From assembly GCA_965208615.1 (NCBI GenBank), contig CBDBPB010000007.1, positions 384,001 to 448,000 of the forward strand: a DNA stretch of 64,000 bases, written 5' to 3'. The stretch is from Spirochaetota bacterium. Lineage in GTDB: Bacteria > Spirochaetota > UBA6919 > CBDBPB01. The notes under the pieces are model-generated. The model was not told the origin of the DNA. It did not search any database and saw nothing but the letters and a program-made list of their open reading frames with translations. Positions 41,066-42,251 of the stretch are shown here, piece after piece (the stretch's first letter is position 1; every line of letters starts with the position of its first letter). Made by a program: the position numbers and the translations under genes.

Positions 41066-41851
41066 TTAAATAGCCTTAATATGACTTAGCTTACTTCTAA
41101 GCCTAATAATTGCTTTTGCATGTATCTGAGAAACTCTTGATTGAGATATGTTTAATATCTCTTTGATTTTTTTTAATTTTAAATCTTCATAATAATATAG
41201 AATAAGCACTTTTTTTTCTTTTTCAGGCAATTCTTCAATTATTTTTGCAATAACTTTTTTAACCTCTTCTTTGCCTACCATTATATCTGGGTTAAAAGAG
41301 TTAGGGCTTTCTATTGTTTCAATAATAGAGACTTTACCACTATCATAACCTAAATACCATGCATCATTAACAGATATTAATGATGTTCTGCATATTTTTA
41401 ATAGTGTTTGCTGAAAGTCGTCTACGGGGATTCCTAATTCACCAGCAATTTCTTCATCTGTGGGAGCTCTGCACAATCTGTTTTCTAAAGTATTAACAGC
41501 AGATTCAATTTCTTTAGCTTTCTGTCTTATTGATCTCGGTACCCAGTCAATAGAACGTAGCTCATCATATATTGCTCCCCTTATTCGTATAAACGCATAA
41601 CATTTAAATTTAATATCTCGAGATGGATCAAATTTTTCAATAGCATCAAGTAAACCAAAAACACCATACCCAACTAAATCGTCAAAATCAATATCTTGAG
41701 GCAGCAAGATTCTATTTGCAACTTTATTTGCAACATATTTTACTAAAGGAAGATATTGTATAATAAAGTTTTCTCTTATTGTTGGGTCTTGTGTTTTTTT
41801 ATACGTTTTGAACATATTTTTTTCTTTTTGATTAAGCATTTTTGTACACAC
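41066..41851 (-). CDS. fliA: Prophage-encoded FliA/WhiG (sigma28) family RNA polymerase sigma factor
   Basis: [56 protein letters not shown]; overlaps gemA stop; ATG at 41839 is an alternative start. Confidence 0.92.
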   Translation of the reverse strand: [261 protein letters not shown]

Positions 41852-42251
41852 CTTTTAGAGCCTCAATCAATATGGATGCTTGTTCCTTAGATAATCTATC
41901 ATAGGGCTTTTTAACAATTTTATTAGAGAAGTTACTAAGTTCTTCTTCATCCCATTTTAGTTGATAGCATAGTTTTAATATTTTTCTTTTTTGGCCTGGA
42001 CTCATAAGGGAAATTATATTCCCTTTTGAGTTTGGGGATGGCTTAGTATTTCTATATCTACCCTTTGAGGCGTTATATTTTGATATTAATGTCTCTATAA
42101 TCTTGTAAGCCTCCTGCCTTGTCAATTGTCTTATTGACTGCTTTCCACAAAGACCATAGATTATCTCGTATAAAGCCTCTTTGGGTAGCCTAACTTCATT
42201 TGTGCAAGCCCATATTTTAGCTATTTGTCTATTGCTAATACTATTTGTCAT
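41832..42251 (-). CDS. Mu gp16/GemA-like protein (DUF1018)
   Basis: QIAKI..., GKQS...LT..EA...IE.L, Q.RKI, L...QAS.LIEALK. Confidence 0.8.
   Translation of the reverse strand: MTNSISNRQIAKIWACTNEVRLPKEALYEIIYGLCGKQSIRQLTRQEAYKIIETLISKYNASKGRYRNTKPSPNSKGNIISLMSPGQKRKILKLCYQLKWDEEELSNFSNKIVKKPYDRLSKEQASILIEALKGVYKNA

Follow-up and report, generated by a model that had tools for sequence, protein, structure and literature searches.

Transposable phages have long been defined in part by Mor/C activators, small proteins that work with the sigma-70 holoenzyme, and we know of no late-gene switch in the transposable phages of spirochaetes. At the left end of Pseudomonas phage B3, ORF1 (Mor-like, 124-486, minus strand) is followed by ORF2 (GemA, 489-1052, minus strand), small open reading frames (ORFs), ORF11 (transposition ATPase), ORF12 (transposase) and ORF13 (DUF3102). 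Here we examine a Mu-like prophage in a 64,000-nucleotide stretch of a Spirochaetota bacterium genome (GCA_965208615.1, contig CBDBPB010000007.1, positions 384,001 to 448,000; hereafter the window), in which fliA, a gene for a sigma-28 factor, stands directly behind gemA, where B3 has Mor. The prophage resembles the transposable prophages of Leptospira in its spirochaete host, its two divergent B3-like arms, its gemA near one end and its lack of Mor/C, which PMC8705779 reports as absent from all 236 predicted leptospiral elements. It differs from them in that the main text of that paper describes no sigma gene in the Leptospira prophages, its sole mention of sigma factors being those of Bacillus phages.

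Sigma factors of phages that redirect the host core polymerase to middle or late genes, the mechanism proposed here, are exemplified by SPO1 gp28/gp34 and T4 gp55; in the literature available to us these are old phage-specific lineages, whereas the fliA of this prophage is a young offshoot of the host sigma-28. The nearest precedent is provided by the host-like sporulation sigma factors of Bacillus phages, which cluster with host alternative sigma factors and are able to act on host programmes (10.1101/2021.11.12.468384). These belong to a SigF/G-like family, however, and are carried by virulent or temperate phages that are not transposable; the accessible text of that source contains neither FliA nor any word beginning with "flagell-", and sigD (motility) comes up there solely as one of the bacterial sigma factors that group with SPO1 gp28 in its tree. 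In our literature search we met no published account of a transposable phage with a sigma-28 gene, and it is this combination that is new, transposable phages and phage-borne host-like sigma factors being already known.

The two genes at the centre of this analysis are the following.

41066..41839, minus strand: phage-borne fliA (sigma-28 paralogue), 257 aa, ATG start, identified by family and tree evidence.
41832..42251, minus strand: gemA-like gene, PF06252 at 39.6 bits (cut-off 27), phrog_286.

In profile searches, Sigma70 regions r2, r3 and r4 (PF04542, PF04539, PF04545) were all matched over the full length of the phage protein and both curated cut-offs were exceeded (NF004935 WhiG, 367.2 bits, cut-off 343; TIGR02479 FliA_WhiG, 264.5 bits, cut-off 189.6), in agreement with the complete FliA/WhiG-type gene described in the initial annotation. 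The WhiG alignment covers residues 9-254, and structures of E. coli FliA cover 27-253. An alternative GTG start at 41851 would give an ORF at 41066-41851 on the minus strand (261 aa); the stored protein (P0001, 257 aa) agrees with the ATG start. The overlap with the gemA stop, which had also been proposed, measures 8 nt between the gemA TAA and the fliA ATG (ATGCTTAA), or 20 nt if the GTG start is used, and a Shine-Dalgarno-like AAGGTG lies 9 nt upstream of the ATG. As was expected from the first reading of the locus, fliA is the last leftward gene of the early operon and has no flagellar neighbours: on one side stands gemA, and on the other 236 nt of phage end are followed by host repeat DNA, hisE and trpE, which places the gene between gemA and the prophage end and outside any flagellar gene cluster.

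A second fliA above the family cut-off was found elsewhere in the same genome (2.46 Mb in 9 contigs, 99.4% complete; C3, C4 and C7 below are contigs of it), at G000:C4:36385-37161 (L001 1426-2202), bringing the FliA-family genes of this genome to two. Its neighbours, which we take from translations read by eye rather than from a family search, are presumably an flhG-like gene and a small ORF before it and a FapA/DUF342-like gene after it, and this is the usual flagellar context. The prophage gene is thus not the only fliA of the genome, and a separate host copy in a flagellar operon, whose existence had been left as a question, is present on C4. Phage and host FliA share 80% amino acid and 85% nucleotide identity, with a pairwise dS of 0.39, a dN of 0.116 and a dN/dS of 0.30. 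Similarity at the DNA level is limited to the ORF body (window 41804-41071), fading in the first 12 codons and about 20 nt past the stop, and the N-terminus of the phage protein is rewritten, with 10 of its first 12 codons differing from the host gene.

In a maximum-likelihood tree of 24 sequences (the phage and host copies and 22 picked down the ranking of the 120 matches listed), the phage copy is sister to host FliA with support of 100/96, on a terminal branch of 0.38 as against 0 for the host copy. When the differences between the two were polarised with the 22 outgroups, 30 proved to be phage-derived, 2 host-derived and 17 ambiguous. A further protein, P0002, is 93% identical to host FliA. 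Judged by these sequence relationships, fliA was taken from this host lineage after its split from the P0002 lineage, and change since the capture has occurred almost entirely on the phage side. The tree, together with the host gene on C4, bears out the proposal of a captured host sigma factor, and at the level of sequence we regard capture from the host lineage as firmly shown.

As the gene that follows gemA and closes the early operon, the captured fliA corresponds in position to the ORF1 slot of B3, the left-end order gemA...B-A-DUF3102 being the same in both phages. This correspondence concerns position and not Mor/C membership: unlike B3 Mor, phage fliA is unrelated in sequence to that family (PF08765 unmatched) and is itself a sigma factor. 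A PF08765 (Mor) search of the whole genome gave a best E value of 0.22, elsewhere on C7 and outside the prophage, and nine small prophage ORFs gave no match at E up to 10. The sigma gene therefore does occupy the slot that is usually Mor's, in a prophage where no Mor-like gene was matched, as the initial annotation had it. Its further suggestion, that the captured sigma replaces Mor/C with altered specificity or else manipulates the host motility regulon or FlgM, is borne out as to capture, slot and altered recognition residues. The functions themselves are proposals: no sigma-28-like or variant promoter class was found in the prophage, and the late upstream region looks sigma-70-like.

Relative to 23 cellular FliA sequences, the phage copy is changed in 17 of 113 invariant columns. 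Of these changes, T80C, V83F, T84I, T221K, E224K, G226K, V231I, T232S, E233Q, L239I and T241A alter family-invariant residues of regions 2.4 and 4.2; the others are L9M, W10F, G38N, M46L, G123C and E189G. Changes cluster in the helix-turn-helix (HTH) of region 4.2 (220-242), where they fall on 8 of the 19 invariant columns (permutation p 0.007), and the net charge of this segment is +6 in the phage and +1 in the host protein. Region 4 had been called atypical from the start, and it does depart from the LTLKEIGE.L.VTESRVSQ found in all 23 aligned cellular sequences. A two-residue insertion (NR) lies in region 1.2/2.1. Residue equivalents were obtained by alignment to solved structures, with contacts as given in the accessible text of 10.1101/2020.01.02.893370 (E. 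coli) and PMC12784957 (P. aeruginosa).

T80C: equivalent to E. coli T69, which contacts -9A; changed.
T84I: equivalent to E. coli Q73 and P. aeruginosa I79, which contacts -12G; changed.
G45L with the NR insertion: equivalent to E. coli R34 and P. aeruginosa R40, in a loop contacting DNA and FlgM; changed.
K223 and R235: equivalent to E. coli K208 and R220, -35 contacts; unchanged.
S234 and Q238: equivalent to P. aeruginosa S224 and Q228, -35 base readers; unchanged.
Equivalents of P. aeruginosa L187 and L204: FlgM interface; unchanged.

The -10 template-strand contacts described in the same sources (R95, R105, Q106, K109) are as in the host copy, and the core-binding stretches are identical to those of the host, the identical runs including one of 28 and one of 17 residues. 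The phage protein thus shares with its sister its core-binding stretches and -35 readers, but differs from it in lacking a flagellar context, in the invariant-column changes, the NR insertion and the HTH charge, and in its new N-terminus. As far as aligned residues can tell, the phage sigma keeps the parts that bind core polymerase and read the -35 element and is remodelled at the HTH and at the -12/-9 readers, from which we infer an altered promoter specificity.

The same pattern of kept and changed residues bears on the idea of a decoy that no longer needs to recognise promoters and acts mainly by binding FlgM, so that host sigma-28 is released, or by competing for the core enzyme. Such a protein would be expected to retain the core-binding stretches of the host and the equivalents of L187 and L204, which form the tested sigma-4/FlgM interface of P. 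aeruginosa (PMC12784957, accessible text); a host FlgM is encoded at C7:349360-349548 (34.9 bits, cut-off 25), and lost constraint on DNA-facing residues would explain both the invariant HTH changes and the AT-leaning replacements described below. Yet the base readers S234, R235, S237 and Q238 as well as K223 are kept amid 8 of 19 changed invariant columns, the probability of keeping the four literature-defined contacts by chance being about 0.09 by a hand hypergeometric estimate, and the positive charge gained by the HTH should strengthen DNA binding. A decoy role therefore seems improbable to us.

We also considered a functionless passenger, that is, an accidental pick-up in decay. The long terminal branch fits this idea, as do changes that are almost indifferent to conservation and the singleton status of the gene, which has no second phage-type copy among 7343 scored relatives and no counterpart in the form of an extra fliA beside GemA in the five other two-copy genomes among 401 Spirochaetota. 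Decay is, however, difficult to reconcile with an intact frame in which the only indels seen are in frame (a 2-codon insertion and a 3-codon difference at the 3' end): in a neutral simulation placing 60-115 random substitutions on the host gene (5000 runs per setting), the frame stayed open in 0.08-3.5% of runs. The pairwise dN/dS given above, the long stretches identical to the host protein, and the tidy translational overlap with its Shine-Dalgarno-like site at the gemA junction likewise speak against decay, which we consider very improbable. In the nearest genome with DNA, FliA is 75-76% identical in protein. Taken together, fliA is a maintained gene under a changed constraint regime, which falls short of proving adaptive change.

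The prophage to which the gene belongs extends over window 40829-76177 (35,349 bp), its right part running past the window end, and is laid out as follows.

40823..40828: left target-site duplication CAGCAC; right copy at window coordinate 76178-76183; 21 uninterrupted repeat copies.
40829..40883: prophage left terminus (TGTTA...), including the 47-bp inverted repeat at 40837-40883.
40884..41065: sub-terminal non-coding DNA with repeated TAAGGGAA-like motifs.
42241..42624, minus strand: orf127, no family match.
42641..43489, minus strand: MuB-like transposition ATPase (AAA_22; phrog_296).
43508..45106, minus strand: DDE transposase (phrog_310; weak rve match).
45108..45869, minus strand: DUF3102 protein, as B3 ORF13.
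51210..51398, minus strand: Ner/Cro-like HTH protein, first gene of the leftward early operon.
51485..51513, minus strand: candidate early promoter, TTGACT-17-TATAAT, 11/12, by consensus match alone.
51522..52001, plus strand: repressor-like HTH_19/CI protein.
52496..52714, minus strand: small HTH_17 (excisionase-type) DNA-binding protein, divergent from the late operon.
52715..52797, plus strand: late-operon upstream region, five tandem GTTTTAG heptads and TTGCCT-N17-TAACTT.
52798..64000, plus strand: late operon, continuing to about 75830 beyond the window.

The terminal sequences are TGTTA...TAACA, with CAGCAC, a 6-bp target duplication, on either side; a perfect 47-bp inverted repeat pairs window 40837-40883 with C7:460123-460169. 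The insertion point is one copy of a dispersed host repeat, whose junction is reached by 41 copies from the left and 22 from the right, and empty sites are provided by 21 repeat copies in the same genome with contiguous flanks, reading ...TTTAAACAGCACTTAAAG.... These contiguous copies and the flanking CAGCAC define the limits at 40829-76177 and the 6-bp duplication. The initial annotation had placed the sigma gene inside putative left-end repeats; it does lie within the phage ends, the terminus being mapped to 40829, whereas the outer left-end repeat, a 41-nt copy at 40507-40547, was ruled out as a phage end because it is part of the dispersed host repeat. A phage end between gemA and fliA was likewise ruled out, because the genes overlap and the mapped terminus lies past fliA. 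The TAAGGGAA-like motifs are presumably candidate transposase-binding sites.

Several observations concern the surroundings of the insertion. The interrupted host repeat comprises window 40507-40828 and window coordinate 76178-76553 (L008 12178-12553). A subset of its copies starts with GTTAACAAACGTTTTAGCAAATATAAC..., resembling the phage terminal sequence, with no inverted partner found at the other end; these copies could represent relics of the phage ends or non-autonomous relatives of them. Past the right end of the prophage, at a distance of about 500 bp, are two tRNA genes (L008 12652-12725 and 12788-12862). In hisE (phosphoribosyl-ATP diphosphatase, window 40085-40400), the profile match begins at position 22 and the upstream ATG-led frame ends in an A run, a pattern suggestive of a frameshift or, within the poly-A stretch at about 40318-40330, of a sequencing error. 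An Rfam search of 40000-53000 gave no match.

The element has the gene set of a transposable phage, namely a DDE transposase, a MuB-type ATPase and GemA (phrog_310, phrog_296, PF06252), ends of the corresponding type (TG...CA termini with inverted repeats and a short target duplication) and a complete set of head, tail and lysis genes. Beyond DUF3102, the early arm continues with several small ORFs, three P22_AR_N antirepressor-like paralogues and the Ner/Cro-like HTH gene; the paralogues (325, 215 and 213 aa) stand in tandem at window 48957-51250 in the early operon, with a mutual DNA identity of about 82%. Late genes encode a Terminase_5-like protein, lysis proteins, large terminase, portal-MuF fusion, protease, scaffold, major head, neck, sheath, tape measure, baseplate and endolysin-like proteins. 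The portal (phrog_113) and the MuF-like minor head protein (phrog_220), which are separate genes in Mu, are here fused in a single 991-aa ORF (window 56585-59560), and staggered self-matches show that a distal tail gene (544 aa) contains tandem repeats spaced about 126 bp apart, at window coordinate 74620-75490 (L008 10620-11490). A second copy of the early module on C3, considered further below, hints at past activity.

In the reading that we tentatively favour, a B3-type transposable myophage acquired the fliA of its own host lineage and set it directly behind gemA. Because the gemA stop and the fliA start overlap and the gene lies at the end of the early operon, fliA, with its own Shine-Dalgarno-like site, would be read with that operon, so that, once the prophage is induced, the sigma factor would be produced as the early phase closes. 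It would then direct the core polymerase of the host to promoters of an altered class and help the switch from early to middle or late phage genes, a Mor-like role exercised by a different mechanism. Both co-transcription with the early operon and phage genes as targets are what we infer from the arrangement. The best sigma-70-like match of the region (51513-51485) lies directly ahead of the Ner/Cro-like gene, and between this candidate early promoter and fliA a search for terminator-like sites on the minus strand returned one weak match (48043-48025, inside the ORF at 47924-48151). We give a retooled phage sigma acting at the early-to-late switch somewhat less than an even chance. Its more specific form, a non-orthologous displacement at an early stage in which the Mor slot is filled with a host sigma-28 that is evolving into a phage-specific sigma with a new promoter class, we hold to be doubtful.

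The main rival is that the gene is instead a host-directed accessory gene (moron). Its product would still recognise the sigma-28 promoters of the host, whether just these, part of them or a wider set, and would change how flagellar and chemotaxis genes are expressed in cells that are induced or lysogenic. Several properties of the gene agree with this: the capture from the host lineage is very recent, and the gene, which lies at the very tip of the phage, has a G+C content of 29.6% (0.295 for its kilobase, 41001-42000, as against 0.32-0.38 for the early arm at 42001-51000). The four literature-defined -35 contacts are as in the host copy, as are R95, R105, Q106 and K109, and P. aeruginosa sigma-28 likewise has an isoleucine (I79) at the site of residue 84, according to the accessible structural descriptions. 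A sigma-70-like match within gemA (42125-42097), a consensus match alone, could allow independent expression, and a precedent exists in the host-like sigma factors of Bacillus phages, which alter host expression and one of which is non-essential for the phage (10.1101/2021.11.12.468384, accessible text). On this account, however, the DNA-recognition surfaces would be expected to be conserved, yet 8 of 19 invariant HTH columns and T80, V83 and T84 are changed; placement at the end of a lytic early operon would leave little time to alter host behaviour, and the benefit to the phage is not evident. We therefore rate a host-directed role as rather unlikely.

The promoters of the region provide a separate line of evidence. 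GCCGATA occurs at four sites in the window (16669, 24952, 31253 and 40379). One of them belongs to the host consensus TAAA-N16-GCCGATA at 24932-24958, 343 nt ahead of flaB (25302-26333), in line with the sigma-28 promoter that the initial annotation had assigned to this gene; among the seven strict GCCGATA sites genome-wide, only the flaB site precedes a gene recognised as flagellar. The accompanying claim that no such element precedes the late operon also held, as none lies within 40829-64000. A TAAA-N15-ATCGATAA at 70679 falls within a baseplate gene, with about 0.8 such sites expected by chance (hand estimate). A perfect TAAA-N15-GCCGATAA at C7:168673, in the tail-only element described below, was considered as a real promoter and taken as chance, since it lies inside a repressor-like ORF and its prophage equivalent is degenerate.

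A number of results weigh against the favoured reading of a phage sigma at the early-to-late switch. Some concern the late operon itself. GCCGATAA occurs 0 times in the whole prophage, and scans of the prophage for the sigma-28 consensus, a relaxed form and -12/-9 variants revealed no enrichment and no sensible placement. In the late-operon upstream block (52715-52797), heptads at 52715-52775 are followed by TTGCCT-N17-TAACTT ending 6 nt before the late-operon ATG, which would make this block a weak sigma-70-like promoter, perhaps of a leaderless message. A homologous block, reading TTGCCG-N17-TATATT, is found in a tail-only element that lacks a sigma gene. In that element TTATAGC takes the place of the GTTTTAG heptads, and the divergent HTH_17 gene next to them is different too; because the heptads co-vary with this gene, the comparison points to the HTH_17 protein as a candidate late-promoter regulator.

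Other points concern the gene and its history. Invariant and variable columns are hit at 17/113 and 32/142, respectively (Fisher p 0.15), which also fits relaxed constraint, and many of the replacements lean to AT-rich codons (K, N, I, F; list read by eye). The early module on C3 (L022, G000:C3 9839-15821; 6 kb) comprises repressor-like, Ner-like, orf62, orf344, DUF3102, transposase, MuB, orf127 and gemA genes; from orf62 to gemA it is 98.5% identical to window 41841-47041, and it stops at the gemA stop and has no sigma gene. Its gemA is followed by non-coding DNA and a host gene, the module being flanked by host genes, without late genes or a terminal motif. Finally, the capture is recent (80% amino acid identity), so the phage lineage must have had another late-gene switch, and a young capture is no less compatible with an added gene than with a replacement.

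The tail-only element (L117/L118, about C7:140-169 kb) consists of a repressor-like gene, an HTH_17 gene, a lysis cassette and sheath, tube, baseplate and fibre genes, and its lysis and tail genes are 76-92% identical to those of the prophage. In the searches run, it gave no FliA-family match and showed no transposase and no head genes, and it could be tailocin-like. At L118 6670-9193, inside this element, ORF pairs recur every ~358 bp, which suggests a long tandem repeat. In the prophage, two AATGCG-N-CGCATT palindromes (52342-52367 and 52443-52466), the sole two in the genome, lie between the repressor and HTH_17 genes and could be operators or RNA hairpins.

The arrangement appears to be rare. 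Apart from the phage FliA itself, none of its 7343 scored relatives exceeded 76% identity, a list from which the host copy is absent as such. Among the 401 Spirochaetota genomes, FliA was detected in 385, with two matches in 6 including the present one; in the other five, three pairs are tandem, one second copy is below the family cut-off and one is chromosomal, lying between what we take, from translations read by eye and not from a family search, to be thioredoxin-like and efflux-pump-like ORFs. GemA gave no match in these five genomes, its profile being also silent in all control genomes. Phage records told a similar story: in an INPHARED protein search across 50,697 records, phage FliA gave 48 matches, and 5 of these cover at least 80% of the protein. 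Two of the five were examined, and both are bacterial flagellar operons filed as unverified phage. L119 (MT835480.1, "UNVERIFIED Bacteriophage sp.") carries fliP, fliR, flhB, flhA, fliA, flgF/G-type rod genes, cheC/cheX and fapA, and L120 (MT835847.1, same designation) carries flhA, an SRP54-type flhF-like GTPase gene, a ParA/MinD-type flhG-like gene, cheB, cheA, cheC/cheX and fliA; neither is a phage. Phage GemA had no match in genome_contigs or viral_contigs, and in a set of 5.8 billion proteins it matched the genome's own C3 copy alone. The phage transposase had no match in viral_contigs, one 1.9-kb contig at 53% identity in metagenome_contigs (L034), and weak matches only in 60 relatives. 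In the collections searched, these two phage proteins are thus almost without sequence relatives, a further difference from the Leptospira prophages.

With host and phage copies side by side in one genome at a dS of 0.39, this locus offers a dated natural experiment on how promoter-reading residues change after viral capture. A young, intact and fast-changing copy of a host sigma factor in the Mor slot is a concrete candidate for the late switch that is missing from spirochaete transposable phages. If the displacement form of the favoured reading is correct, the gene would represent a living intermediate on the way from host sigma factors to those dedicated to phages, of which SPO1 gp28, grouping near SigD-type factors, is an example; if the host-directed reading applies instead, it would be a host take-over gene of a new kind, with motility as its target. 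The captured fliA may thus show how phages make a regulator of their own from a host sigma factor.

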